Below, piece by piece: positions 30,347 to 59,994 of a DNA stretch of 64,000 nt. Position numbers and translations under genes: made by a program. The stretch's first letter is position 1, and each line of letters begins with the position of its first letter. The DNA is from Patescibacteria group bacterium (lineage in GTDB: Bacteria > Patescibacteriota > Minisyncoccia > Phycocordibacterales > DATDWN01): contig JACDEV010000001.1 of NCBI GenBank assembly GCA_013816135.1, positions 28,994 to 92,993 on the forward strand, written 5' to 3'. A model generated the notes under the pieces. It worked only from the letters and a program-made list of their open reading frames with translations. It did not search any database and was not told the origin of the DNA.

Positions 30347-31150
30347 AGGAGCGATCTAAGGTCAATATTATTTAAAATAGGTAAAAAAGGAAGACCTAGA
30401 GCTCAAAAACACATATTTCCTTTTACTGGAATAATGACTTGTGGTGAGTGTGGAGCAAGAGTTACAGCTTCAGAAAAAAAGAAGTTGAATAAAACCAGTG
30501 GGAAAATAGAAACTTACGTTTACTATCATTGTACAAAAAGAAAGAAGTATATAGATTGCAAAGCACAACCAGTTACTGTATCTAAGCTTGAAGATGACAT
30601 TGTAAAAACAATAGAAACAAATCTGATTGATCCAGAGTTTTATAAACTAGGTTTAGAGACTTGGAAAGAAGTGCACGAACTGGAAACAGACCAAAGACAG
30701 AAAATATACGAGGCACAATTCAAAAATGTAGAAGAAACAGAAAAGAAATTGGATCGAGCACTTACATTTCTTTTTGATGGAACAGTTACAAAAGAACAAT
30801 ACAACATCCAAAAACAAGAATTAGAAAAATTACTAACAAGAGAAAAAGACAAACTCGCACAAACAGAAAAAAGAGCTACGAACTGGAGAGAACTTACTGA
30901 AAATGTTTTACACTTCTCTGCTTTAGCTGTAGAAGCGCTTAAACATGGAGATGTTCAGGTCCGGAGAGAGACACTGAGTAGTCTAGGTTGGAACCACAGG
31001 ATAGAATCTAAAAAACTGTTTATAAACCTACATTCTTGGTTTACTGTTCTTAAAAAAGGTGAGGAAGAGCTTTTACCAGAAATAAAAGCGTTGGAACTGG
31101 AAAAAATCGTTGATAAGCAAAGACGGATGGAAGCTTTTGCCACCATCCGT
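30347..31150 (+). pseudogene. Large serine recombinase, 5'-truncated remnant (recombinase + Zn-ribbon + coiled-coil part only; resolvase catalytic domain missing)
   Basis: The frame is open from the stop at 30344: ...KKGRPRAQKHIFPFTGIMTCGECGARVTA...YYHCTKRKK...C... is the typical Zn-ribbon_recom motif, followed by a long coiled coil. The annotated ORF (30434..31306) runs on antisense through tRNA-Tyr, which looks spurious. Confidence 0.6.
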
Positions 31151-31159
31151 CCTAGGTTG

Positions 31160-31242
31160 TGCGTCGGGAAGGATTCGAACCTTCGAAGCCCGAAGGCGCC
31201 AGATTTACAGTCTAGTGCGATTGACCACTCCGCCACCGACGC
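31160..31242 (-). tRNA. tRNA-Tyr (anticodon GUA)
   Basis: Acceptor GCGTCGG/CCGACGC, anticodon loop CTGTAAA, long variable arm CGCCTTCGGGCTTC, T-loop TTCGAAT. Confidence 0.85.
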
Positions 31243-31402
31243 ATTCTCGATACTCATTATTCCCTCATCTGCTTTGTTGCTGATTGTGCCCGCTTCCGCA
31301 GAGTAGTTTTCTACACTTTGGTCGCGGTACTCATCAGCGCCTCGCATCTGTGGGAATTCTGTGCTCGAGAAATACTTTAACACATTTTATTTAATTGAGA
31401 AA

Positions 31403-43224: not shown

Positions 43225-43800
43225 ATGACAAACTCAGAACAAGATGGAGAGCAGATATTTTTGCTCGAAGCTTTGCGCAAATTCAAACAAATTGGTTCCA
43301 TACTTCCTAGCAGTAAATATCTTGGAAAAAGTATGGCTAAGTTTGTTTCAGGAAAAGAAGGATTTGTAGTTGTGGAGCTTGGCGCAGGTACTGGAGTAAT
43401 CACAAAAGAAATTCTAAAAAAACTTTCTAAAACTGGAAGGCTTATTGCTTTTGAGAACAACAAAGATCTCGCTGAATACCTCCGACAAAACATAATGGAC
43501 CCAAGACTAATAGTTTTGGAAAAAAATGTCTTGTCTATGAAAAAATATCTTAACGATCTTGGGTATAGCAAAGTGGATTGTATTATTTCCGGACTACCAC
43601 TAGGAACTATAAAAAAATCTGATAGAACGAAGATACTAGAAACTATACAAAAACTACTAAAGAAAGATGGAGCTTACATCCAATTTCAATATTTTCTTTC
43701 TTCCCTTTCTATGATAAAAAAACACTTTAGCCGGACAAAGATAAAGAATTATGAGCTTCGAAATTTTCCACCAGCTTTTGTCTATGAGTGCAAGAAATAG
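43225..43800 (+). CDS. Class I SAM-dependent methyltransferase
   Basis: Motif I VVELGAGTGVITKEIL; 191 aa. Confidence 0.6.
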   Translation: MTNSEQDGEQIFLLEALRKFKQIGSILPSSKYLGKSMAKFVSGKEGFVVVELGAGTGVITKEILKKLSKTGRLIAFENNKDLAEYLRQNIMDPRLIVLEKNVLSMKKYLNDLGYSKVDCIISGLPLGTIKKSDRTKILETIQKLLKKDGAYIQFQYFLSSLSMIKKHFSRTKIKNYELRNFPPAFVYECKK

Positions 43801-43904
43801 CATTGACTTTTTCACTTTTTTATGATACTAATTTGGGCAGAGCTGAAGTTTGCCAAGAGGTAAACAGCATACGTTCATTGACGTTTCTAGATGTTAAAAG
43901 GAAA

Positions 43905-45086
43905 AGTATGAAAGAATTTGAAAGAGGTTTTGCACTAATAGTATTAGTACTATTAGGCTCCGTCTGGTATTCAATGGGATTTCTGGGGGTACTGGTAATC
44001 TTGGTTCTTATTTCCGGTTTAATTGCTTCTTGTGTCTTTGCTGCGTGGCAAATGGCAAAAGCAGACATTCTATTCACATTTATCGGCATCGGTGAAATCA
44101 AAATGGTGGATAGAGGTGTCGGCAACTTCTGGAAGATTTTGGCTAATTTGCCAGGTCATCATGTTGAAGGCGAAAAAATCGTTGAAGATAGTAAAGAAGA
44201 ACATACAAAAAGTTATCTGGAAAAACGTTATGGTCTTTACTTTATCGGCTTCTCGCCGGCAAAGCTTCATGAATTTGAGTTTGTTCATGAAAGGATCAAT
44301 CCGGACATCAAAAAAGGTATGCCTCCAGACGAGTGGATCAAAAGGGATGATCATGCACAGAAAACCACCACTCTGCTCTGGGAGATTCCACATTGGTATT
44401 TGGTCTCCGGGGTAGAATTCCATGATCAAATGAGTGGTGAACTACTCTTCAATTGCATGTCACGAGTCACTAGACCTGTAGTTGCTATCTACCTTCGTAG
44501 AGGGCAATTCATCGACTATTCTGCACAATATGTAAACGGTGCAGTAATTGATTCTGTAAGAAATGAGAATTTTTCTGATCTTCAAGGTCTCCAGAAAATG
44601 GAGAGTGCAATTAAGGAAGAAGGAGGGAAAACACCTCTTTCAGAGGAAATTGTATCGAAGGTCAACGTGCTTCTTGAAGACGCTGTTGGTCTGAAGATGC
44701 AATGGGGATTTATTTCCCAGTACGATGCATCTGATAAGTCTGACCAGAAAGCGCTTGAAGCTAGAAAGGTAGCTCAATTAGAGGGTGAAGCTAAGATTGA
44801 GACAGCTAAGCAAGCTGTTGCAATCTCTAAGCAAACCGCAAAACAAACCAACATTGAAGCGAAAGCTCAGCTTAAAGCTGACGAGATCAAGTCTAAGGGA
44901 CAAATGTCAGGGCTAGAAGCTGCACTCAACATCATCAAGGAAAGATTCCCAGATATTGACCCATCAGAAGCTCTACAAAGAGCAACTGAACTTGCAGTCG
45001 CAACAAAAATGTCTCACCCACAATCTCCAGTAACAGTACTGGGAGCAAGTGTGAGTATTGGTGTTAAAACTGCGGAGAAAAAGTAA
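43905..45086 (+). CDS. SPFH/band-7 (flotillin/stomatin-like) membrane protein
   Basis: N-terminal TM helices, SPFH-like FIGIGEIKMVDRGVGNFWKILANLPGHHV, and a C-terminal Ala/Lys/Glu/Gln-rich coiled coil. The start was taken at the internal Met to avoid overlap with the methyltransferase. Confidence 0.4.
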   Translation, partial: SMKEFERGFALIVLVLLGSVWYSMGFLGVLVILVLISGLIASCVFAAWQMAKADILFTFIGIGEIKMVDRGVGNFWKILANLPGHHVEGEKIVEDSKEEHTKSYLEKRYGLYFIGFSPAKLHEFEFVHERINPDIKKGMPPDEWIKRDDHAQKTTTLLWEIPHWYLVSGVEFHDQMSGELLFNCMSRVTRPVVAIYLRRGQFIDYSAQYVNGAVIDSVRNENFSDLQGLQKMESAIKEEGGKTPLSEEIVSKVNVLLEDAVGLKMQWGFISQYDASDKSDQKALEARKVAQLEGEAKIETAKQAVAISKQTAKQTNIEAKAQLKADEIKSKGQMSGLEAALNIIKERFPDIDPSEALQRATELAVATKMSHPQSPVTVLGASVSIGVKTAEKK

Positions 45087-45844
45087 TGTTTAAATACATT
45101 GCTGGAACTATTTTTGGGTTAATCATCATTGCTGTATGTGTTGGTCTATGGGCTAAATCACTAAATCCATCACTTCCTCCGGACTCACTTGAGGATTCAC
45201 CTGAAGCTATTAAGTGGAGACAAAAGTACTGGAAAAAACATGATTGGATACCGATTCTTGTCTTTCTACTCATGTTGCATGCAATGGCCTGGATGACTTG
45301 GCCCAATTCTTGGATGTCGATTTGGCAAGAGAGCGGTAAATTTTCTCTAACCAAAACAATAATGATCCTAGCTTTCCACGCTTTTGCGATCATTTTCTTC
45401 GACATACTACCAGAAAAAAAAGACAGTCCATGGAAATACCTCGTTGCAAGGATAGGTGTGGGACTCTGCTTTATCGGATTTTTGATAGTAATCGGGGCTC
45501 TTCCGTGGTTTGGTGAAAAATACTGGGAAGAGAAGGAGAAGGCTGAAATGGTAAGGGTTGCTTTAACTGAGGCGATTCGTATCGAACAGCAAAAACCTTT
45601 TGAAGTAACCGCTCCTGCTTATTATATCTTGAGTGAAAGAATCCTGACTCCAGAATATACAGAAGTAACTACTTCAGGTCCGATTTACGTCGTTACTGAC
45701 AGGGGTGACTGGATAGAGTATGAAAACAACCTAACTGAAAAGACTATTCTTCCTTACTACACTGCTGGAATGAGATTCACATCTAGAACGTTTGAAAATG
45801 AAGGAGAACATAAAAATGTTACGGTCATTGTAAAAAGACCCTAA
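45086..45844 (+). CDS. Multi-TM membrane protein with a soluble C-terminal domain (possible NfeD-like partner of the SPFH protein)
   Basis: 252 aa; start overlaps the stop of the SPFH gene. Confidence 0.35.
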   Translation: MFKYIAGTIFGLIIIAVCVGLWAKSLNPSLPPDSLEDSPEAIKWRQKYWKKHDWIPILVFLLMLHAMAWMTWPNSWMSIWQESGKFSLTKTIMILAFHAFAIIFFDILPEKKDSPWKYLVARIGVGLCFIGFLIVIGALPWFGEKYWEEKEKAEMVRVALTEAIRIEQQKPFEVTAPAYYILSERILTPEYTEVTTSGPIYVVTDRGDWIEYENNLTEKTILPYYTAGMRFTSRTFENEGEHKNVTVIVKRP

Positions 45845-45850
45845 CTACTA

Positions 45851-45893
45851 TGAAAAACCGCGCTTATCCCTAAAGATGAGCGCGGTTTTCACT
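45851..45893. terminator. Bidirectional terminator (AAAACCGCGCT-loop-AGCGCGGTTTT)
   Basis: 11-bp perfect stem between convergent operons. Confidence 0.7.
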
Positions 45894-45908: not shown

Positions 45909-46208
45909 TTATAAATTCAAATATTGCTGAGAAATTGGTTCATCGTTTAAATTAATACCAAACGAATACAGAACAAATTTTATAAGACCATATACAGAAA
46001 ACATCACAAACATGCCAACTAATCCCCATAAAATTGCATCTTGAGCTTGTTTTCTATCCTTATCACCAGCTTCAAGAGAAAGATATTTTACTATTCCCCA
46101 TGTAAAGTAAGCAAAAGCTAGAGCAAATGCCAAAAGAATTAAAGGGTTCAGAATCAATTTATTGACCTTATTTAAGAAAGGTACAATAGTAATTGAATTC
46201 GATGGCAT
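45909..46208 (-). CDS. Small two-helix membrane protein, VirB2/TrbC pilin-like paralog 1
   Basis: ...FAYFTWGIVKYLSLEAGDKDRKQAQDAILWGLVGMFVMFSVYGL. Confidence 0.4.
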   Translation of the reverse strand: MPSNSITIVPFLNKVNKLILNPLILLAFALAFAYFTWGIVKYLSLEAGDKDRKQAQDAILWGLVGMFVMFSVYGLIKFVLYSFGINLNDEPISQQYLNL

Positions 46209-46226
46209 ATATAAAAACTTAAATTA

Positions 46227-46574
46227 TTATAGACCTGGAACTGTAGGAAGTGGAACTGCAGTAACTGTGCTGATTCCTAATGCATTCTGAAGCCAAATAA
46301 CCAAACCATAAACAGAGACCATAACAGCAATAGCTATGACACCATAGATCATATGACTCTTTCCTTGTTCCTGAGCCTTTGGATCACCTGCACCTCGTAA
46401 GAACTGGATAACTCCCCAAAAGAAGAAGATTATGGCAAGAGCAAACATAATTGGAATGATCTTTGCAATGATCTGACCAATTGCAGTAACTAGTTGTGAA
46501 AGACCACTAAGGTTTCCCTGAGCAAATGCGAATGCTGGAGAGAAAGCCATGACTGCGTAAATAACTTTTTTCAT
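46227..46574 (-). CDS. Small two-helix membrane protein with Sec signal peptide, VirB2/TrbC pilin-like paralog 2
   Basis: Signal peptide ...AFAFA|QG; IFFFWGVIQFLRGAGDPKAQEQGKSHMIYGVIAIAVMVSVYGL. Confidence 0.4.
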   Translation of the reverse strand: MKKVIYAVMAFSPAFAFAQGNLSGLSQLVTAIGQIIAKIIPIMFALAIIFFFWGVIQFLRGAGDPKAQEQGKSHMIYGVIAIAVMVSVYGLVIWLQNALGISTVTAVPLPTVPGL

Positions 46575-46657
46575 ATTAAATTTTACTTATTGATATTATG
46601 TGTAATGACTTAATTCTACTATAAAAACGTTGGAAAACAAGGCTACTGTGGATAGCT

Positions 46658-47134
46658 TTAACAAGGATTTGCAGCAAAAGGATCTTCACCAGAAGTGCAG
46701 TGTCCAGGAGTTTGATATATACCACTTGAACCGCCAACTGTTCCAGTGAAGTTAGGAACAGTTGTATGACTCTCTAATGTAGTTCCACCTGCTCCAGCCC
46801 CTATTCCACTTGGTTTTATCCCAAGAGCATTTCCAATAAAGGAAATTATTCCCATTATGGAAATAATAACAAAGAGAGCAACCACTCCCCAAATCATTTT
46901 CTGTTTACCCTCATCTCGAGTTTTTGAATCTCCTGCATGTAAAATGAATTGTCCAACTCCCCAGAAGAAATACAGAAATGCCAAACCTATTATGACAGGT
47001 TCTGTAAGGTGTAATATTTGTCTAATATCCAAAAGCAAACCTTTAATCCCATCGAGTGCTGCAAAAGAAACAACTGGAAATAAAACCAACACTGACAATA
47101 TTGCAAATGATATTTTATTTATATTTTTTTTCAT
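46658..47134 (-). CDS. VirB2/TrbC pilin-like paralog 3 (with a Gly/Thr-rich C-terminal extension)
   Basis: Signal peptide ...VSFA|AL; LYFFWGVGQFILHAGDSKTRDEGKQKMIWGVVALFVIISIMGI. Confidence 0.4.
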   Translation of the reverse strand: MKKNINKISFAILSVLVLFPVVSFAALDGIKGLLLDIRQILHLTEPVIIGLAFLYFFWGVGQFILHAGDSKTRDEGKQKMIWGVVALFVIISIMGIISFIGNALGIKPSGIGAGAGGTTLESHTTVPNFTGTVGGSSGIYQTPGHCTSGEDPFAANPC

Positions 47135-47139
47135 AATTA

Positions 47140-47547
47140 TTATTTATTAGGATACCCTACTTTACTACTATATTCCGGCGTTAAAACATCAGTCCTGAGA
47201 AGTACTCCATTTGGATCAGAGCCACCTGCAAAAAACTCACCCGCAGCAAGTCCAACCAATATACGATAGGTTACCATAATAAAAAGTGCTAACACTCCCC
47301 AGATCATATATTGTTTTCCTTTTGCTATTTCCTCAGGTTTACTGGAGCTAAGGATGAACTTGGAAAGACCCCAGAAGAAAACAAGTGATGCAAGGATTTC
47401 TAATATAGGAATAAGGGTATTAACAATTTCAGTAGCATATTGAACTATAGTCTGGAAATTAGATCCTGCTAGATCGAAATCTGCTCCGAAAACAATAGTA
47501 GGTACATATAATAAAGTCAGAAGGAAAATAATTTTCAAAGTTTTCAT
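47140..47547 (-). CDS. VirB2/TrbC pilin-like paralog 4
   Basis: LVFFWGLSKFILSSSKPEEIAKGKQYMIWGVLALFIMVTYRIL. Confidence 0.4.
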   Translation of the reverse strand: MKTLKIIFLLTLLYVPTIVFGADFDLAGSNFQTIVQYATEIVNTLIPILEILASLVFFWGLSKFILSSSKPEEIAKGKQYMIWGVLALFIMVTYRILVGLAAGEFFAGGSDPNGVLLRTDVLTPEYSSKVGYPNK

Positions 47548-47548
47548 G

Positions 47549-47938
47549 TTAAGTAGTTAATGCCGTTACTGTATTCTCAACAACCTGTGCAATCCCTGCG
47601 GCACCCAGCAATATACCAGCACCAATCAAAGCCCAGAGTAATCGTTGTTTAGCTATCTTGATTTCCTTGGGGTTACCTTGAGCTAAGACAAAACTGAAAC
47701 CTGCCCAGATAATCCAAACAACCACAATTACAGACGCTACAGGCATAATTATATTTTTAAGTATAGTTTTCAATAAAGCTGGAAGTGAATCACCTGCTTT
47801 TTTTGCTGGATTATCAATTCTTATATCATATGTTTGGGGAGGATTTACAAGCGGAGCTGATGGGACAGATGCACTAATGAAAAAAGGAACGGAGAGTAGA
47901 AACAAAAACATCAAAAGAAAACTTTTTTGTATTTTCAT
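47549..47938 (-). CDS. VirB2/TrbC pilin-like paralog 5
   Basis: IIWAGFSFVLAQGNPKEIKIAKQRLLWALIGAGILLGAAGI. Confidence 0.4.
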   Translation of the reverse strand: MKIQKSFLLMFLFLLSVPFFISASVPSAPLVNPPQTYDIRIDNPAKKAGDSLPALLKTILKNIIMPVASVIVVVWIIWAGFSFVLAQGNPKEIKIAKQRLLWALIGAGILLGAAGIAQVVENTVTALTT

Positions 47939-47943
47939 AAAAA

Positions 47944-48423
47944 TTATTTAAAAAATATTACAGGTTTATCTAGCAAAGAATTTGTTATCAAAGTGACAAT
48001 AAGCCATGCAGCCAATATAAATCCCATTCCTATTAACACTTTTACCAACATAGCATTAATCTTGGTTCTTTCACTAGGATTAGAGCCATTTATCATGTAC
48101 TTAAATCCTGCCCAAGCTAATATAACCACGCAAAACATCAATGCAAACTTCGATCCCCAAGCAACGATATCTACTGTTGCCGCAACCAAGTCCTTGAGAC
48201 CACAATTACCATACACTGCTGTGTCTCCAGAACCTTGAATGCATTCATAGGTTATACCCGTATTAGTATTTTTTCTGACCGGCTCATTGACTGGATTAGA
48301 GGATGGATTAACAAGGGGAGCATCTGTTGCGTAAATTACGACAGGTAGAACTAATAAGCAACAGAATAAAATAAGTATTGGTAAGAATAAAAATTTGTTT
48401 TTTATATTATTTGAAAATCTCAT
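47944..48423 (-). CDS. VirB2/TrbC pilin-like paralog 6 (Cys-containing N-terminal extension)
   Basis: ILAWAGFKYMINGSNPSERTKINAMLVKVLIGMGFILAAWLIV. Confidence 0.4.
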   Translation of the reverse strand: MRFSNNIKNKFLFLPILILFCCLLVLPVVIYATDAPLVNPSSNPVNEPVRKNTNTGITYECIQGSGDTAVYGNCGLKDLVAATVDIVAWGSKFALMFCVVILAWAGFKYMINGSNPSERTKINAMLVKVLIGMGFILAAWLIVTLITNSLLDKPVIFFK

Positions 48424-49703
48424 TTCAGTTCTGTTCCAAGCTCATCATTTGCAGTATTTAAAGCTTCGCTAACCCTATTTCTTCCGCTGGTTATTGATTC
48501 AATCATATCACGCAAAGTTCCTGCGCTTTTGTATGCATCAGGATCTATCCAAGAATGGGCAATTAAGGCGGAGCTATAAAAAACAGACCGGAATGCATCT
48601 GCTGGCTTATTAGATAACAAATCTCTTCTAACAGGAGGTAGGTTAGTTATAGTCTCTAATGCTGTCAAAGCTGTGGCTTCTGTAAGAGCGTTTACGGCAA
48701 GAAAGGACCCACCTATCTGTTTAGACTGCTTTACGATAGCTAGAGAGTACATATGACCAAAGACAGACTTCTTTGCTGAATCACGAATTTGAGGAACATA
48801 AGTAACATCAAAATTCAAATTAGAATTCTTCTGTTGGATTGGAAATATTTCACTAGCAAATCCAAGATACATAGAAAGATTACCAGACAAAAAGAAGTTG
48901 AGTGATGATGGCAATGCTCTGTTCCATGTATAAGTAGCAGAAGTAGGGTTGGAGAATTGAGTGTAGAAGTTAATTGCTGATGTGCCTGGAGCTATAGGGT
49001 AATCAAACTGAGAATTCAAAACAGCCATTACACCTTGACTAGTTCTGCTTGTTATCGGTGTTCCCGCTTGGAGCAAAAGCATTGAAATAATTTCTTTTGC
49101 GTTTGTAATATTTCTCCATTCACCTAACGCAATAGCACTTTTCAATATGTTTCCGGAGCTATCCTTATTTGTAATCTTGTCTACCAATGGGTATATCTGA
49201 TCCCAGTACTGAGGTGGTTGTGAGATTTGATTATTAGAAAACATATCTCGATTCCAATACAGAACCATAGGATCTATTATAAATGGAACAGCTACTATTC
49301 CATCTGTTGAAAGAAAGATTTCTCCTTCTTCAATAAATTTATCTTTAAAAGTCCTTGCTGGATAACTCTTGTAAGGAATTACAAAAAGCTTCTTACTATT
49401 CTTGTAGATAAAATCATCTCTGAGAATAACGATATCTGGACCGGTACCTTCAGCCAAAGCCTCCACGAATTCTGAGTCAAAGTTTGCTGTGTCCTTTTTT
49501 ACATAGGCAATTTTCACTTCCTTGTTTGATTTCAAAGTCGAATTTTGATATGCGCTATCAAATGCTTCGTTGGAAATAGTTCCCCAAACCACTAGATTTG
49601 CACTTTGTGGGGAGACAGTGGCTTTAGAAAGAGCAAAAACAGCAATTCCTACTACAGAAGAAATGCCGAAAATGGTAAGGATGGCTATCTTGAAATTACT
49701 CAT
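48420..49703 (-). CDS. Membrane-anchored extracellular solute-binding protein (family 1, MalE-like)
   Basis: N-terminal TM anchor, then LVVWGT...EALAEGTGPDIV...VPFIIDPMVLYWNRDMF, typical of SBP_bac_1; 427 aa. Its start overlaps the methyltransferase stop. Confidence 0.5.
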   Translation of the reverse strand: MSNFKIAILTIFGISSVVGIAVFALSKATVSPQSANLVVWGTISNEAFDSAYQNSTLKSNKEVKIAYVKKDTANFDSEFVEALAEGTGPDIVILRDDFIYKNSKKLFVIPYKSYPARTFKDKFIEEGEIFLSTDGIVAVPFIIDPMVLYWNRDMFSNNQISQPPQYWDQIYPLVDKITNKDSSGNILKSAIALGEWRNITNAKEIISMLLLQAGTPITSRTSQGVMAVLNSQFDYPIAPGTSAINFYTQFSNPTSATYTWNRALPSSLNFFLSGNLSMYLGFASEIFPIQQKNSNLNFDVTYVPQIRDSAKKSVFGHMYSLAIVKQSKQIGGSFLAVNALTEATALTALETITNLPPVRRDLLSNKPADAFRSVFYSSALIAHSWIDPDAYKSAGTLRDMIESITSGRNRVSEALNTANDELGTELK

Positions 49704-50227
49704 AATTTTTTAAAAATGAATCCATAGTGATGGCTTCCCGCAAATATCTCACGGTCTAAATGAAATCCGTGGTGAAGAAAAAGATCTTTGACCGTTTCTT
49801 TTTTCATAACATGCTCTGGTATAGGTCCAAGTCCGCCGAATGAATCCGTCCAATCTACCACCAATACTTTCCCGGCAGGCTTCAATACCCTTTTAGCTTC
49901 ATTTATTGTACCTTTTTTATCCTCAACTTGAAAAAGAACATTACATAGAAACACAATGTCTGCTGAAGCACTCTTGAGTTTTGTGCCATTTTCTTTTTCA
50001 ATATCTCCCCAAATGACTTCGATATTATAAAGTCCATCCTTTGCTGCTGTATTCTTCAGTTTTGTCAGAAGGTCTTTCTGGGCATCAATTGCATAAACTC
50101 TTCCTGTAGCCATGAGAGCTCTTGCTGCTGCTATAGAGTAATGTCCTGACCCACTGCCAAAATCTGCAATTTCTTGACCTACTTGTATTCCGCACTGCTC
50201 GACATTTTTTACCGGATCAGAAAACAT
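49700..50227 (-). CDS. Class I SAM-dependent methyltransferase (first gene of the pilin-like operon)
   Basis: Motif I IADFGSGSGHYS and LKPAGKVLVVDW; 175 aa. Confidence 0.6.
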   Translation of the reverse strand: MFSDPVKNVEQCGIQVGQEIADFGSGSGHYSIAAARALMATGRVYAIDAQKDLLTKLKNTAAKDGLYNIEVIWGDIEKENGTKLKSASADIVFLCNVLFQVEDKKGTINEAKRVLKPAGKVLVVDWTDSFGGLGPIPEHVMKKETVKDLFLHHGFHLDREIFAGSHHYGFIFKKL

Positions 50228-50254
50228 ATAACTTTATTATAGTATGAAAAAATC

Positions 50255-50278
50255 CCTTAAGTAAGGGAGTTATTAACA
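50255..50278 (-). terminator. Terminator hairpin (TCCCTT-AAGT-AAGGGA + T6 on the minus strand) immediately upstream of the methyltransferase start
   Basis: Either terminates gyrA transcripts about 250 nt downstream of gyrA, or acts as an attenuator in front of the operon. Confidence 0.5.
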
Positions 50279-50414
50279 AATAAAATCTCATACTCACAAC
50301 ATGCTTTCCTCAACACGCGTAAATCGCTGTTGCGATTTCGCTATGCTCGCTTACCCAGCTGTGCAAGTCTCGGAAAACATATTATTCGATGAGATTTAGT
50401 TAAAATGAATATTT

Positions 50415-50530
50415 CTCGTTGAGTCATAAGTTTTCTGAGACCTTCGCAAGGCTGACGAGCCGAGAAAAGCAAAATCTTTTCAAAGATTTATGCGTGTTGA
50501 AGAAAACTTATGACGAGAAAGAGATTTCTA
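50415..50530. repeat. Conserved ~115-nt structured element, copy Y (paralog of 57135..57245)
   Basis: About 75% identity to copy X. Hairpins covary: AAATCTTT-TC-AAAGATTT here versus AAATCTC-AGCA-GAGATTT in X, and GGCT-GACG-AGCC here versus GCG-ACGG-CGC in X. Confidence 0.5.
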
Positions 50531-53012
50531 CAAACATATCAAACTTGCTATCGAGTCGCCCTCCCGCAACTTCATAACCCTCACTCCCTGAGTCTGACGG
50601 CCTAGAACCGGAATCTCCTTTGCGTCTACACGTATAACCTGAGATTTCTTTGAGATGGCTACAACTTCTGCCTCGTCACTAGAGAATATCTTCGCTGAGA
50701 TGATATTTCCGGTCTTTGGAGTGACCTTTGCTGTTTTTATTCCTGACCCACCTCTATTTTGGATTTTGTATTCATCAATATCGGTTTTCTTTCCATATCC
50801 ATTATTTGAAATAACCATTATGGTAGCTGAGTTAACTGAGTTTGAAACGGTTTCAGCTGATATAACTTCATCGCCCTTGCCAAGCTTCATTCCACGAACA
50901 CCCATTGCTGTCCTACCCATCTCTCTTATATCTGATTCTTTGAAATGTATAGCCTGACCTTTTGCTGTAACGATAATCACAGTATCTTTCTTGTGAACAA
51001 ACGAAGCAGAGATTAGGGAATCACCACCATCTAGTTTGATCGCAATAATTCCAGAGATGCGCACATCATGAAAGCTGGCAGTAGAAACTTTCTTGGCTAC
51101 TCCTTGTTTGGTCACCATCATAAGTGAGCTTTCTGACTTCTTAACTTCCTTTGGCATTGGAAGAATAGAGGTGATTTTTTCACCTTCGAATAATGGGAGA
51201 AAATTCTGGACTGATTTACCTCGAGTTGCTCGCCTACCTTCTGGAATATCATACATTTTGGTCTGATATACCTTTCCTTTGTCAGTAAAGAACAAAAGGT
51301 CGGAATGAGTGGAAGTTATGAGAAGCATAGTTACAAAATCCTCTTCTTTGGTATCAAGGTCCACAACACCGACTCCCCCTCGTTTTTGTTTTCTAAATTC
51401 ATCTGGATTTGTACGCTTAATATATCCGCCTGCTGTCAAAACAAGTGCGTTCTCTTCATCTGCGATTAAATCTTCAACAGATAATATTTGAGCTCCGCCT
51501 TTGATTATTCGAGTTCTCCTTTCATCTCCGTACTTTTCTTTAATCTCTTTGCTCTCATCTTTAATTATTCCAAGAATCTTTTTTGGACTAGATAAAATAG
51601 CTTTCATTTCATCTATGAAAAGCTGGACTGCCTTCAATTCATCCTCGATTTTCTTTCTTTCAAGACCTGCAAGTCGTGAAAGCTTCATTTCCAAAATAGC
51701 TGTGGCCTGGATAGCAGAGAACTTGAACTCTGACATCAATTTTTTGTGTGCTTCCGGTGTATCTTTGGAACCACGGATGAGTTTGATTATCTGATCAATA
51801 TGATCGAGAGCTTTTTTCAATCCAAGAAGGATATGTTCTCTTTCTTGTGCCTTTCTTAAATCATATTCTGTTCGTTTTCTGATCACTGTCATTCGGTGAG
51901 TAACAAACTCTTCCAAAATTCCTTTTAGAGATAGAGTTTCTGGTACACCATTTACCAATGCAACCATGTTGTAATGGAAAGCTTCTTCAAGCTGAGTGTG
52001 CTTATATATATAATTCAAAACTGACTGTGGGTGAGAAGTTCCTTTGAGGTCAATTGCTATTCGAATATCCTTTGCAGACTCATCTCGCATAGCTTTTACT
52101 CCTTCAAGTTTTTTGTCTCGAACTAGTTCAGCTATCTTTGTAATAAGGTTTGCCTTGTTTACTCTATATGGAATGGAAGTAATAATAATCTGAAAATTCC
52201 CTGCTTTGTTTTCAACAATCTCCGCAACACCTCGAGTAACCACTCCGCCTTTTCCATTTGCATAGGCGTGAGCAATATCTTTTTGATTGAAAGCCACTCC
52301 TCCAATCGGAAAAATCTGGACCTTTAACGAACTGAAGTAGGTCTTCTGTTGTTGCGTCTTTATTGTCCACAAGATGAATTACGGCATCCATGACTTCTCC
52401 TAAGTTATGAGGAGGAATATTTGTTGCCATACCAACTGCAATACCCAAAGTTCCATTCAAAAGAAGGTTGGGGACTCGAGTTGGCAAAACTGCAGGCTCT
52501 TTCTTTGTGCCATCATAGTTCGGAAGAAAATTAACTGTCTCTTTTTCAATATCACGGAGAAGTTCTCCAGCAATCCTAGACATCTTGGCTTCGGTATATC
52601 GATAAGCCGCCGCATTATCACCGTCGATAGAACCAAAGTTTCCTTGTCCGATGATAAGTGGATACCGCATCGTGAAATCCTGAGCCATTTTGACCATAGA
52701 GTCGTAGACGGCAACGTCACCATGAGGATGGTAATCTCCAATAACCGCTCCAACTACTGTCGCTGATTTTCTAGTCTTGCCTGAAACAGTCAAGCCATTT
52801 TCATTCATCGCATGAAGAATCCTTCTATGTACTGGTTTCAATCCATCACGGACGTCAGGAAGGGCACGGTCAGTAATAACAGACATAGCGTAGTCGATAA
52901 AAGAGGTCTTCATTTCATCGATAATTTCCTGAGAAATAACGTTCACTCTTGGCAATATCGGCTCGTCTTTAGGAGTATCTGTAGATTTTTTAGGCATAAA
53001 AATATAGGTCAA
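50528..53012 (-). CDS. gyrA: DNA gyrase subunit A, interrupted by a single-base frameshift (two ORFs 52212..53012 and 50528..52372)
   Basis: The N-terminal ORF has the active-site [11 protein letters not shown] and ends ...KGPDF. The downstream frame continues ...[27 protein letters not shown]... The frames differ by +1 at the A5 run 52311-52315 (T5 on the coding strand). Confidence 0.8.
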
Positions 53013-57098: not shown

Positions 57099-57134
57099 AA
57101 AAATAATTATAACATACCTCCTTTACTGTAAAAA

Positions 57135-57245
57135 CTCGTTGAGATCATTTGTTTTTAGAGACTTCGCAGTGCGACGGCGCGAGATAAGCAAAATCTCAGC
57201 AGAGATTTATGCGGTTTATAAAAACAAATGTTGAGAAAGAGTTTT
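57135..57245. repeat. Conserved ~115-nt structured element, copy X (paralog of 50415..50530), in the divergent pth/lepB intergenic region
   Basis: CTCGTTGAG...GAGACTTCGCAGTGCGACGGCGCGAGATAAGCAAAATCTCAGCAGAGATTTATGCGG...ATGTTGAGAAAGAG aligns along its full length with copy Y. Confidence 0.5.
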
Positions 57246-57306
57246 GATTTATTACGTCACGCAAAATCCCATTGTGTCAAACGTACATCACCTGTATACT
57301 GCAACC

Positions 57307-57891
57307 ATGAATGAAGAAACTCCTTTAATTTCTCCTATTAAACCCCAATCTTCCAATAAAGCTGTTCTGAAAGAAATAATAATATTGGGCCTCATTGCAC
57401 TTGGAATCATACTTCCATTTCGGCTTTTTATTGCCGAGCCTTATATAGTTTCAGGAGCCTCAATGGACCCTACATTTAAAACTGGAGACTATTTAATAGT
57501 AGATAAGCTTTCATATGAACTAGGAACCCCAAAAAGGAATACAGTTATAGTATTCAAATACCCTAACGACCCTACAAAAAGCTTCATCAAAAGAGTGATT
57601 GGTTTACCCGGCGAAACTGTAATTATGGAAGGTAATAATGTTCGAATAATAAATAAGGACAAACCACAAGGTTTTGAAGTTGATCAATCCTATGTAACTC
57701 ATCCCCAAGCAGAATCTTTCCAAAAAACATTAAAAAGCGATGAGTATTTCGTTATGGGAGATAATAGAAGGGAAAGTTTTGATTCCAGATCATGGGGACC
57801 ACTTCAGAAAAAGTTTATTCTTGGTAAACCAATACTAAGATTATTTCCAATAAATAAAATAAGTGTGCAGCCAGGAAAGGATGATAAGTAA
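57307..57891 (+). CDS. lepB: Signal peptidase I
   Basis: SGASMDPTFKTGDYLIVDK (S26 SM.PT box) and GDNRRESFDSR. The start was moved to the Met at 57307 (MNEETPLI...) inside the listed ORF. Confidence 0.8.
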   Translation: MNEETPLISPIKPQSSNKAVLKEIIILGLIALGIILPFRLFIAEPYIVSGASMDPTFKTGDYLIVDKLSYELGTPKRNTVIVFKYPNDPTKSFIKRVIGLPGETVIMEGNNVRIINKDKPQGFEVDQSYVTHPQAESFQKTLKSDEYFVMGDNRRESFDSRSWGPLQKKFILGKPILRLFPINKISVQPGKDDK

Positions 57892-59915: not shown

Positions 59916-59994
59916 ATTTTCTTGATTTCCGAGCAGAGCAAAAGTCTAGAAAGACTTTATGCGAGCTTAAGAAAATTTTTTAGGAAAAAACCTT

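Follow-up and report, generated by a model that had tools for sequence, protein, structure and literature searches.

Organization of the locus

The window analyzed here, a 64-kb stretch of a Patescibacteria chromosome, contains a block of eight minus-strand open reading frames (ORFs) encoding a methyltransferase (MTase), a solute-binding protein (SBP), and six small pilin-like proteins. The ORF positions were checked and all eight lie where a first-pass annotation had placed them, with the six small-protein genes adjoining one another at 45909–48423. As that annotation also had it, the co-directional upstream genes overlap, the MTase stop with the SBP start and the SBP stop with the start of the first pilin-like gene; the pilin-like genes themselves are separated by 1–18 nt, with a single exception of 83 nt. 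Because of these overlaps, the tight spacing, and a flanking terminator, the MTase, the SBP, and the six pilin-like genes constitute one eight-gene chromosomal operon. A terminator scan placed a GC-rich hairpin with a 15-bp stem (45854..45889) in the gap that separates the last array gene, ending at 45909, from a convergent gene ending at 45844, and this putative bidirectional terminator would close the operon. The same scan found a small hairpin followed by T7 on the minus strand (50253..50268), approximately 25 nt 5′ of the MTase ATG. A terminator hairpin had been proposed just ahead of the operon, and the hairpin and T-run are indeed present at 50268–50253, where they are probably the terminator of gyrA. 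Past this hairpin, direct reading of the sequence shows a TATAAT hexamer (50241–50236), a putative element 8 nt ahead of the MTase ATG.

Further upstream is a 245-nt imperfect palindrome (50283–50527; RNA fold −100.9 kcal/mol, z −8.8), with partial copies at 57131–57254 and 59929–59989. It had been described as a conserved structured element in front of the operon, a description that did not hold. In 80 other species the corresponding loci lack the palindrome, and it is therefore a genome-specific repeat and not a conserved operon leader or a part of the operon.

The first gene of the operon (49700..50227, minus strand) encodes a 175-aa protein without a signal peptide, whose Pfam matches (Methyltransf_31, 73.9 bits; Methyltransf_11, 59.3 bits) agree with its earlier assignment as a class I SAM-dependent methyltransferase; the nearest solved structure is a generic SAM methyltransferase (3dh0, E 3e-17). 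It lies immediately 5′ of the SBP gene in 59 of 70 metagenome loci and is missing in one subclade in which gyrA adjoins the SBP gene (e.g., locus L049), making it a facultative member of the block. The second gene (48420..49703, minus strand) encodes a 427-aa, membrane-anchored or secreted extracellular SBP of family 1 (MalE/MBP-type). The earlier description of a membrane-anchored MalE-like protein was supported by a match to Pfam SBP_bac_8 (50.7 bits) and by a profile of 19 orthologs that, along the whole of the protein (6–423), matched MBP1 (PDB 4r9f; E 1.3e-13). Hydropathy places a hydrophobic N-terminal segment at residues 6–24, and more than 2343 homologs carry the name "extracellular solute-binding protein." A structure model of the SBP had a pLDDT of 48, too poor for viewing a binding pocket.

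The six pilin-like proteins

All six small proteins score above the gathering threshold of the T4SS_pilin family PF18895 (32.3–38.4 bits vs. 26.6; E 1e-7 to 1e-9), matches that, at the level of sequence, are far beyond chance. The 129-aa protein alone also exceeds the cut-off of PF04956 TrbC (30.0 vs. 27.9), and all six match the NCBIfam Mbov_0395 pilin-like family (NF045849) weakly, at 19.7–31.8 bits, under its curated cut-off of 40. A signal peptide with small residues at −3/−1 (AFA|Q, SFA|A, VFG|A, ISA|S, IYA|T) is present in five of the six and missing in the 99-aa protein. Each protein has two hydrophobic helices; the first terminates in (F/I/A)W(G/A)G, the loop between them is short and K/R-rich, with a motif that is approximately G-D/N-P/S-K...K, and the second opens with (I/L)(W/Y)G in five of the six. 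The shared architecture proposed in the first-pass annotation is thus recovered, with the loop motif only approximate. For the 115-aa member, AlphaFold2 (118-sequence alignment, mean pLDDT 83) predicted a two-helix hairpin, with helices at residues 22–60 and 65–98 joined by a 4-residue turn. Fold searches could not distinguish VirB2 from other helical hairpins, no sequence-level match to any solved pilin was found, and a tblastn search against plasmids returned nothing. It is the curated profiles, which match all six proteins, together with the predicted helix-turn-helix, that uphold the proposed identity as VirB2/TrbC-type pilin-like hairpins.

Small proteins with two transmembrane (TM) segments are generally hard to classify; no evidence was found that the array is unrelated to pilins. 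The six paralogs are only 15–29% identical to one another, and therefore do not represent an assembly duplication; the same array also recurs in independent assemblies. Likewise, a holin or bacteriocin-immunity family was rejected, with no such Pfam family and no PHROGs or PADLOC matches among the six. We regard a non-pilin origin as extremely improbable.

Reciprocal-best-hit clustering of 324 pilins from 57 loci produced six large communities and two singletons, with one paralog of the window in each community. The first protein (159 aa, group 1; 47944..48423, minus strand; PF18895 33.1 bits) has a signal peptide followed by an N-terminal extension of about 55 aa with two invariant cysteines and then the hairpin; of 50 orthologs, 90% or more keep both cysteines, and the group comes first in the array in 50 of 50 loci. 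In second position is the 129-aa protein of group 2 (47549..47938, minus strand; PF18895 35.5 bits, PF04956 TrbC 30.0 bits), the most TrbC/VirB2-like of the six, which scores 31.8 bits against Mbov_0395, its cut-off of 40 unmet. Protein 3 (135 aa, group 3; 47140..47547, minus strand; PF18895 32.7 bits) is of an "FFWG...GK..MIWG" class, and its group is found in 50 loci at position 2–3. Protein 4 (158 aa, group 4; 46658..47134, minus strand; PF18895 32.7 bits), of the same class and from a group present in 40 loci, ends in a Gly-rich tail some 55 aa long, as the paralog alignment shows. The penultimate protein 5 (115 aa, group 5; 46227..46574, minus strand; PF18895 38.4 bits) belongs to a group with 73 members in 56 loci, at times duplicated in relatives. 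Protein 6 (99 aa, group 6; 45909..46208, minus strand; PF18895 32.3 bits), the hairpin without a signal peptide, consists of two hydrophobic segments only, and its group closes the array in 55 of 55 loci.

Each of the six groups was found in 40–56 of the 57 loci in a fixed position, and identity between orthologs (31–57%) exceeds that between paralogs. As judged from this clustering, the groups are ancient, separately conserved subunit types in a fixed gene order and not interchangeable copies: groups 1 and 2 are specialized leading types with exposed N-terminal extensions, group 6 is a signal-less terminal type, and groups 3–5 make up a more expandable "FFWG" core class. Tandem divergent VirB2 copies are also found in the type IV secretion systems (T4SSs) of Bartonella and Anaplasma, where, as cited by the authors of the Patescibacteria survey, the paralogs have been read as antigenic or host-range variants, and a role in host range or evasion of recognition has been suggested for the Patescibacteria paralogs too (PMC12102498). 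The present array could by analogy be a cassette of interchangeable major pilins that broadens host range or evades recognition. The low paralog identity, the differing exposed N- and C-terminal tails, the variable mid-array copy number, and the faster evolution of the pilins relative to the SBP, MTase, and gyrA are all in keeping with this. However, all six types are older than the split between the sampled species, and every one has kept its place in the order. Orthologs are also more alike than paralogs, and the leading and the terminal types each occur in a single copy with an architecture of their own, such as the Cys pair in group 1 and the lack of a signal peptide in group 6. The fixed order and the distinct single-copy end types fit a division of labor and not interchangeable variants, and in contrast to Bartonella and Anaplasma the copies here are six ancient ortholog groups; a variation cassette is improbable.

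Coupling of the array to the solute-binding protein

Comparison with relatives showed that the association between SBP and array is essentially universal in the lineage. In 57 of 57 loci from GTDB species, each with 4 kb or more of flanking sequence, 4–7 pilin-like ORFs come after the SBP gene, and in a second, independent sample of 80 metagenome loci the array lay directly 3′ of an SBP ortholog in 68 of the 69 with enough flank. The block is always downstream of gyrA, which is upstream in 50 of 50 metagenome loci. We read the block as probably core and vertically inherited in the class Paceibacteria. Since gyrA is equally always adjacent, strong synteny in this clade alone is no proof of function.

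A normal set of T4SS pilins might share no more than a promoter with unrelated housekeeping genes, the SBP feeding a sugar ABC importer encoded elsewhere. Such an operon of convenience is compatible with the equal synteny of gyrA and other housekeeping neighbors, with the dispensability of the MTase in one subclade, and with an SBP that is a full-length member of a carbohydrate SBP family and is the slower-evolving partner (63/44% identity vs. 44–57/31–41% for the pilins). Insertions, however, pile up between gyrA and the SBP gene (8 to 3354 nt) but almost never separate the SBP from the first pilin-like gene. There the distance from stop to start, with a median of 2 nt, is at most 68 nt in 72 of 73 cases, and the two codons often overlap; this tightness persists even among SBPs that have diverged to about 42% identity. 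Nor were permease or ATPase genes found within 10 kb on either side of the block in six genomes, and the SBP is an orphan with no ABC permease or ATPase gene close by. Mere convenience is a minority reading to which we give limited credence.

Relation to known type IV secretion systems

The first-pass annotation had reported no T4SS ATPase or channel gene in the window, and the ORF search agreed: neither these nor an ABC permease or ATPase were detected among the ORFs of the 64-kb window or in the 10 kb past its right edge. In five other genomes, the ±10 kb around the block likewise contained no VirB4, VirB6, or VirD4, so that homology alone links the locus functionally to a T4SS. Of 3035 Patescibacteria assemblies, 2417 carry VirB4, which in Paceibacteria lies near dnaA. 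The L057 genome (Zambryskibacteria RIFOXYC1_FULL_39_10) was scored VirB4-positive, as were 22 of 25 Zambryskibacteria MAGs in the same list.

The same annotation could name no canonical arrangement of this kind. The coupling to an SBP is indeed unusual, but the array itself is not new, since tandem VirB2-like arrays have already been published for Patescibacteria. A survey described 441 arrays of 2–11 genes each in 383 assemblies, most abundant in Microgenomatia and Saccharimonadia, with sequence-divergent pilins of 25% mean identity (Quinonero-Coronel et al., 2025, PMC12102498), and Southlakia epibionticum has an essential series of six pilins inside its T4SS cluster SEML1_0006-0019 (Wang et al., 2023, PMC10633639; PMC12857230). 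Common to those arrays and the present one are PF18895 and PF04956 matches, a tandem arrangement of about six members, roughly 25% paralog identity, and a chromosomal location with no relaxase context. In contrast to S. epibionticum, the present array is neither in nor near a virB4 cluster, and it differs from the published arrays in sharing its operon with a MalE-type SBP gene and, in most cases, an MTase gene, with gyrA as the neighbor. No mention of SBP-pilin coupling was found in T4SS papers on the topic or by full-text search, and the Patescibacteria pilin-array literature yielded none of six fixed ortholog groups or of hairpin fusions; the fusion of the array into an SBP operon and the six ordered groups both appear to be new.

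Like VirB2, TrbC, and TraA (PF04956), the proteins here are small pre-proteins in which a signal peptide precedes two hydrophobic helices linked by a short basic loop. In classical Gram-negative T4SSs a single pilin gene adjoins virB3/virB4 and its product requires dedicated processing by cyclization or acetylation, whereas the present locus has six distinct types in a monoderm host and lacks adjacent T4SS genes. The Mycoplasma ICE family Mbov_0395 (NF045849) is similarly a VirB2-like hairpin protein of a wall-less or monoderm MPF-FATA-type system, but is a single gene in a mobile element, and all matches here fall under 40 bits. The DNA-import pili Ced and Ted of Crenarchaeota combine VirB2-like CedA1 pilins with a VirB4-like ATPase and have no SBP; they offer a precedent for VirB2-type filaments that serve import, not export, in organisms lacking an outer membrane. 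Solute-binding-fold proteins tied to a T4SS-type apparatus outside their own ABC operon include PrgZ and TraC, the pheromone-binding proteins of enterococcal plasmids, and ChvE, the sugar-binding protein that signals to VirA in Agrobacterium. PrgZ is an OppA-type (family 5) and ChvE a family-2 SBP, both acting in sensing or regulation; the present SBP is by contrast of family 1 (MalE/MBP-like), and neither PrgZ nor ChvE is known to be co-translated with pilin genes.

A proposed function

We lean toward reading the locus as the form that the VirB2-like pilin array takes in Paceibacteria (Parcubacteria/Zambryskibacteria-type), a heteromeric assembly at the surface or in the membrane, probably built by a T4SS, with the SBP as its partner for binding a ligand or host. 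The inferred parts of this view are how the proteins sit in the membrane, their assembly by a T4SS acting in trans, the formation of a filament, and any role of the SBP or MTase. The six two-helix products would be exported by Sec, the last inserting by itself, and would sit in the membrane N-out/C-out with the basic loop in the cytoplasm, like VirB2/TrbC/TraA propilins. A VirB4-based T4SS encoded elsewhere on the chromosome would most likely extract them, and where the cell touches its host, the extracted subunits may form a pilus-like filament or conduit of mixed composition. The co-translated, surface-tethered MalE-type SBP might then bind a ligand or host glycan in capture or recognition.

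The six hairpins could instead form a fixed, hetero-oligomeric bundle or ring of 12 TM helices in the cytoplasmic membrane, where it would partner the SBP as an SBP-dependent uptake channel or receptor that involves neither a T4SS nor a pilus. This would suit the strict SBP-array coupling with no ABC permease nearby, the six conserved types in fixed order, and the separation of the block from virB4, and hairpins concatenated behind one signal peptide recall fused c-subunits, which occur in rotary ATPases. The sole homology signal is nonetheless to pilins, an SBP working with 2-TM subunits is without precedent, and no energy-coupling component is apparent; a fixed 12-helix transporter also sits poorly with the 4 to 8 hairpin units seen among species and with fusions of up to 8 units. 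Such a complex seems unlikely, and the T4SS-built assembly remains our preferred reading.

Relatives carry 2–8 hairpin units in a single chain behind one signal peptide, and these chains provide sequence-level evidence on the physical adjacency of hairpin units. One fusion, the three-unit P0242, sits at array position 3 of the SBP-array block, and such a chain stands in for the middle genes of the block at locus L091.

Gene organization and identity of the encoded proteins

Eight co-directional ORFs lie on the minus strand at 45909-50227, with every coordinate exactly as called in the first-pass annotation, whose observation as a whole is confirmed. The first encodes a class I SAM methyltransferase (MTase) of 175 aa (49700-50227; Methyltransf_31, 73.9 bits) and the second a solute-binding protein (SBP) of 427 aa (48420-49703; SBP_bac_8, 50.7 bits over residues 59-362), so both upstream genes had been correctly recognized, along with their overlapping stops and starts: the MTase ends within the start of the SBP gene, which in turn runs into the first of the small genes. 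Downstream of the SBP, on the same strand, follow genes for six small proteins of 159, 129, 135, 158, 115, and 99 aa in order of transcription, separated by the remaining gaps of 5, 1, 5, 83, and 18 nt. No obvious Shine-Dalgarno motifs were seen upstream of the eight starts. A terminator scan located a hairpin with a 15-bp stem (45854-45889) between the last array gene and a convergent gene pair, and the hairpin with a T-run that had been noticed ahead of the operon is real (50268-50253); it is followed by a TATAAT hexamer, a putative element read from the sequence, 8 nt before the MTase ATG. Proteins identical to those of the block are deposited as hypothetical proteins H0W91_00450-00475 and, for the SBP, as MBA3732836.1 ("extracellular solute-binding protein", "Patescibacteria group bacterium"), and in protein and locus searches the closest homologs carry the names Zambryskibacteria, Paceibacterota, or Patescibacteria.

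The identification of the small proteins as VirB2/TrbC pilin-like proved right. All six pass the cut-off of 26.6 bits for PF18895 (T4SS_pilin), scoring 32.3, 38.4, 32.7, 32.7, 35.5, and 33.1 bits from the sixth protein to the first, and the 129-aa protein also passes PF04956 (TrbC/VirB2; 30.0 bits, cut-off 27.9), while the 159-aa protein stays below that cut-off at 15.6 bits. Each protein has two hydrophobic helices around a short K/R-rich loop, the hairpin of VirB2-type pilins, and all but the last carry a signal peptide, with small residues at positions -3 and -1. NCBIfam gave only sub-threshold matches, to a Mycoplasma ICE pilin-like family. Sequence and profile searches of the PDB with the pilins found nothing relevant, and the TrbC-like pilin had no tblastn match among 72,556 plasmids. 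Pairwise identity among the six paralogs is only 15-29%, which excludes an assembly duplication as the source of the array; the holin reading is likewise excluded, and no holin, phage, or defence family matches the pilin-like proteins. An apparent strain variant of the second pilin, at locus L002, reflects only a gene call truncated where the contig stops; at the DNA level the sequences are 100% identical.

A known kind of array with an apparently unreported partner

Arrays of divergent VirB2-like genes have been described in Patescibacteria. A search of 3,035 genomes with PF04956 and PF18895 recovered 441 arrays from 383 assemblies, each made up of 2-11 VirB2-like genes, at a mean paralog identity of 25% (Quinonero-Coronel et al., 2025; PMC12102498). 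By the definition used there (at least two PF18895 or PF04956 genes on a Patescibacteria chromosome, in tandem or one gene apart, with a mean identity of about 25%), the six tandem genes studied here, with their identities of 15-29%, form a Patescibacterial VirB2 array. In Southlakia epibionticum, the essential T4SS cluster likewise includes a series of predicted pilins (Wang et al., 2023; PMC10633639). A review from 2025 puts the number of "structurally conserved but sequence-divergent" pilins in this species at six and speculates on a pilus serving as an uptake conduit (PMC12857230). The only Patescibacterium amenable to genetics requires both the T4SS and its pilin series, yet their function has been called "completely unknown" (PMC11665869). 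Since six-gene divergent arrays have already been published, the present array is a feature of known kind, and the locus refines a known kind of system. The arrangement had been described in the first-pass annotation as not a canonical one that could be named. This is overstated for the array itself, but it stands for the coupling to an SBP, of which no mention was found in Patescibacteria T4SS papers, a perspective article, or a full-text search.

The coupling is strongly conserved. A relative of the SBP is encoded in at least 594 GTDB species genomes, and the 80 best loci among these (42-72% identity) were taken as a species sample. In every one of the 80 that had room downstream, pilin-like ORFs directly follow the SBP on the same strand. 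The synteny proposed for checking in relatives is borne out, with four to seven pilin-like ORFs after the SBP in 57/57 loci whose flank extends for 4 kb or more. Between the SBP stop codon and the start of the first pilin gene lie a median of 2 nt, and no more than 68 nt in 72 of 73 cases; the interval from gyrA to the SBP ranges from 8 to 3354 nt, accommodating inserted genes. Eighty metagenome loci, drawn around another subclade, formed an independent second sample with a similar result: a pilin-like ORF right after the SBP in 68/69, four or more such ORFs in 31 of the 34 loci whose flank reached 4 kb, the MTase directly upstream of the SBP in 59/70, and gyrA upstream in 50/50. An operon of convenience is not favoured by these data over the model of assembly in trans set out below. 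What varies here from the published kind is that the array stands apart, is obligately coupled to an SBP, and has its six paralogs in order; together these features form a conserved core locus of the class Paceibacteria. Many third-party MAGs named "uncultured Candidatus Saccharibacteria" encode SBPs of up to 67% identity, as similar as those in records named Zambryskibacteria or Paceibacterota, and share the gene order; the label on those assemblies is probably generic or erroneous and was set aside.

The solute-binding protein and the methyltransferase

More than 2,343 homologs of the SBP were found in the database, the best 120 of them at 62-74% identity. A profile of SBP orthologs aligns over residues 6-423 to MBP1 (PDB 4r9f; E 1.3e-13), so that the protein belongs along its full length to the carbohydrate SBP family (family 1, MalE/MBP-like). 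An AlphaFold2 model built on a 19-sequence alignment had a mean pLDDT of 48, too poor to confirm two lobes, and was discarded. Median identity of the SBP to the window protein is 63% in close and 44% in far relatives, in comparison to 44-57% and 31-41% for the pilins, 69% and 52% for the MTase, and 86% and 69% for gyrA. This greater constraint on the SBP than on the pilins suggests a conserved ligand. The MTase is missing in a subclade in which gyrA abuts the SBP (for example, locus L049) and is therefore treated as accessory; as a cytoplasmic enzyme, it could in principle modify the Lys-rich loop of the pilins.

Six ordered ortholog groups

When the 324 array pilins of the 57 species were clustered by reciprocal best hits, they fell into six large communities and two singletons. 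Each community contains one of the paralogs of the window, is present in 40-56 of the 57 loci, and keeps a fixed position. Group 1 comes first in the array in 50/50 loci and group 6 last in 55/55, while group 5 is penultimate and is duplicated in some loci. In every case, identity between orthologs lies above that between paralogs. The groups also differ in build. Group 1 proteins are extended at the N terminus by an exposed stretch in which two cysteines are near-invariant, and they have in common with group 2 a helix that ends in W/Y-A-G-F and a loop with "NP". The motif FFWG...GK..MIWG unites groups 3-5, and group 6 lacks a signal peptide. As judged from the sequences, this combination of fixed order and differing architecture argues for six ancient, non-interchangeable types with a division of labour in one assembly, that is, for a heteromeric machine. 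It argues against recently amplified, interchangeable variants and antigenic variation, and a reading of the genes as variation cassettes is not favoured over the heteromeric assembly.

Fused multi-hairpin proteins

A profile search over 1.84 billion representative proteins (E ≤ 1e-3) found 49,283 relatives. Many of the top matches are single chains in which two to eight hairpin units stand in tandem behind one signal peptide, joined by Gly/Ser-rich linkers. Such poly-pilins (matches P0241, P0242, P0246, and others) are present in several independent assemblies, and no mention of them was found in Patescibacteria T4SS papers. A three-unit protein annotated as "pilin" (MCF7834248.1) occupies position 3 of a gyrA-MTase-SBP-pilin block (L091, 10001-11011), where it replaces the middle genes of the array; every one of its units is of the group 3/4/5 class. 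Concatenation of hairpins is topologically consistent with an N-out/C-out orientation, and its natural occurrence implies that neighbouring units lie side by side in the final structure, so that the fused proteins offer constraints for modelling subunit packing. A further apparent fusion, of pilins 1 and 2 at locus L063, is spurious and stems from a masked stretch of N.

Absence of secretion and transport genes nearby and a model for assembly

Pfam annotation of the window ORFs agrees with the earlier statement that no T4SS ATPase or channel gene is present: no VirB4, VirD4, or VirB6-type genes were found in the 64-kb window or in the 10 kb past its right edge, and the same range contains no ABC permease (BPD_transp_1) or ATPase. 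Within 10 kb on either side of the block, five related genomes annotated with Pfam showed no T4SS or ABC-transporter genes. The array is thus not encoded with VirB4 and other T4SS assembly genes (window, the 10 kb beyond, and five relatives), nor is the SBP encoded with cognate permease and ATPase genes (window and five relatives). In Paceibacteria the VirB4 system sits near dnaA. Table S1 of PMC12102498 scores 22 of 25 Zambryskibacteria MAGs as VirB4-positive, including the genome that contains locus L057.

Because related genomes carry a Patescibacterial VirB4 system, the economical model is one of assembly in trans. The six hairpin proteins would be inserted by Sec with the basic loop in the cytoplasm, as are VirB2 propilins; a VirB4 system encoded elsewhere would then extract the pilins and assemble them into a heteromeric pilus-like structure, of which the surface-tethered SBP would be the ligand- or host-binding partner. 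A T4SS-independent channel made of the SBP and hairpin proteins would fit the lack of T4SS genes around the block, while the VirB4 systems of related genomes speak for assembly in trans. The data favour no rival over assembly in trans; only the artefact and holin readings are excluded.

A more specific proposal is rather unlikely: that the SBP and the six VirB2-like hairpin subunits form one dedicated Paceibacteria apparatus, an SBP-capped heteromeric filament or channel that binds a conserved carbohydrate derived from the host, or a glycan on its surface, and passes material on to the epibiont. If true, it would provide genetic evidence for a Patescibacterial "T4SS pilus" in uptake or host recognition, possibly without VirB4 machinery. 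The locus overturns nothing. It does show that, in the largest CPR class, the array is tightly joined to a well-conserved protein of sugar-binding type, and it gives the question of the Patescibacterial T4SS pilus a defined subunit set and a testable partner, since the SBP can be produced in soluble form and assayed for its ligands and for binding to the pilins.

Genomic surroundings and intergenic elements

The window is an ordinary small-genome chromosome, with topA, relA/spoT, parB, a murA-type gene, serS, clpB, infB, a cysteine desulfurase, gyrA, S1, hisS, lepB, ftsA, ftsZ, dnaX, dprA, and eight tRNAs. The spacer between gyrA and the MTase contains an imperfect palindrome of 245 nt (50283-50527; RNA fold -100.9 kcal/mol, z -8.8), with partial copies in two other intergenic regions (57131-57254 and 59929-59989). 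It had been taken for a conserved structured element, a description that does not hold: the palindrome was not found at the corresponding loci of 80 other species, and no Rfam family matched it above threshold, on which grounds a role as riboswitch or operon leader was rejected. The palindrome resembles a MITE- or REP-type repeat specific to this genome and is not part of the operon.

The gyrA gene is split into two overlapping ORFs (52212-53012 and 50528-52372) by one extra T in a T-run at about 52314. An otherwise identical public contig differs by one gap in 20.7 kb and has an intact gyrA of 822 aa; the split is probably a homopolymer sequencing or assembly error. The convergent pair beyond the array (43788-45086 and 45086-45844, plus strand) encodes two membrane proteins. 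That of 432 aa has only weak homologs (24-30% identity) in about 14 of the 80 loci, and its positional counterparts of about 406-408 aa in relatives carry a Band_7/SPFH domain. The other, a multi-pass protein of 252 aa, matches nothing in Pfam, and no homolog of it could be detected among the 80 loci. A gene of similar size stands at its position in the relatives inspected.

TraF-type peptidases that mature pilins belong to the Peptidase_S26 family. A signal peptidase I of this family is encoded about 7 kb upstream of the block (57244-57891, plus strand), in a neighbourhood kept in all relatives inspected, and is probably the housekeeping LepB. An ORF at 30434-31306 (plus strand) has only the zinc-ribbon domain of a serine recombinase and overlaps tRNA-Tyr (31159-31242, minus strand); it is perhaps what is left of an integrated element. 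Just past the right edge of the window (L088, 10923-20921) lies a cluster encoding large, secreted-looking proteins, with a faint cohesin match, a dockerin match, and a protein of 1182 aa; in this organism the cluster may serve adhesion or belong to the cell surface.
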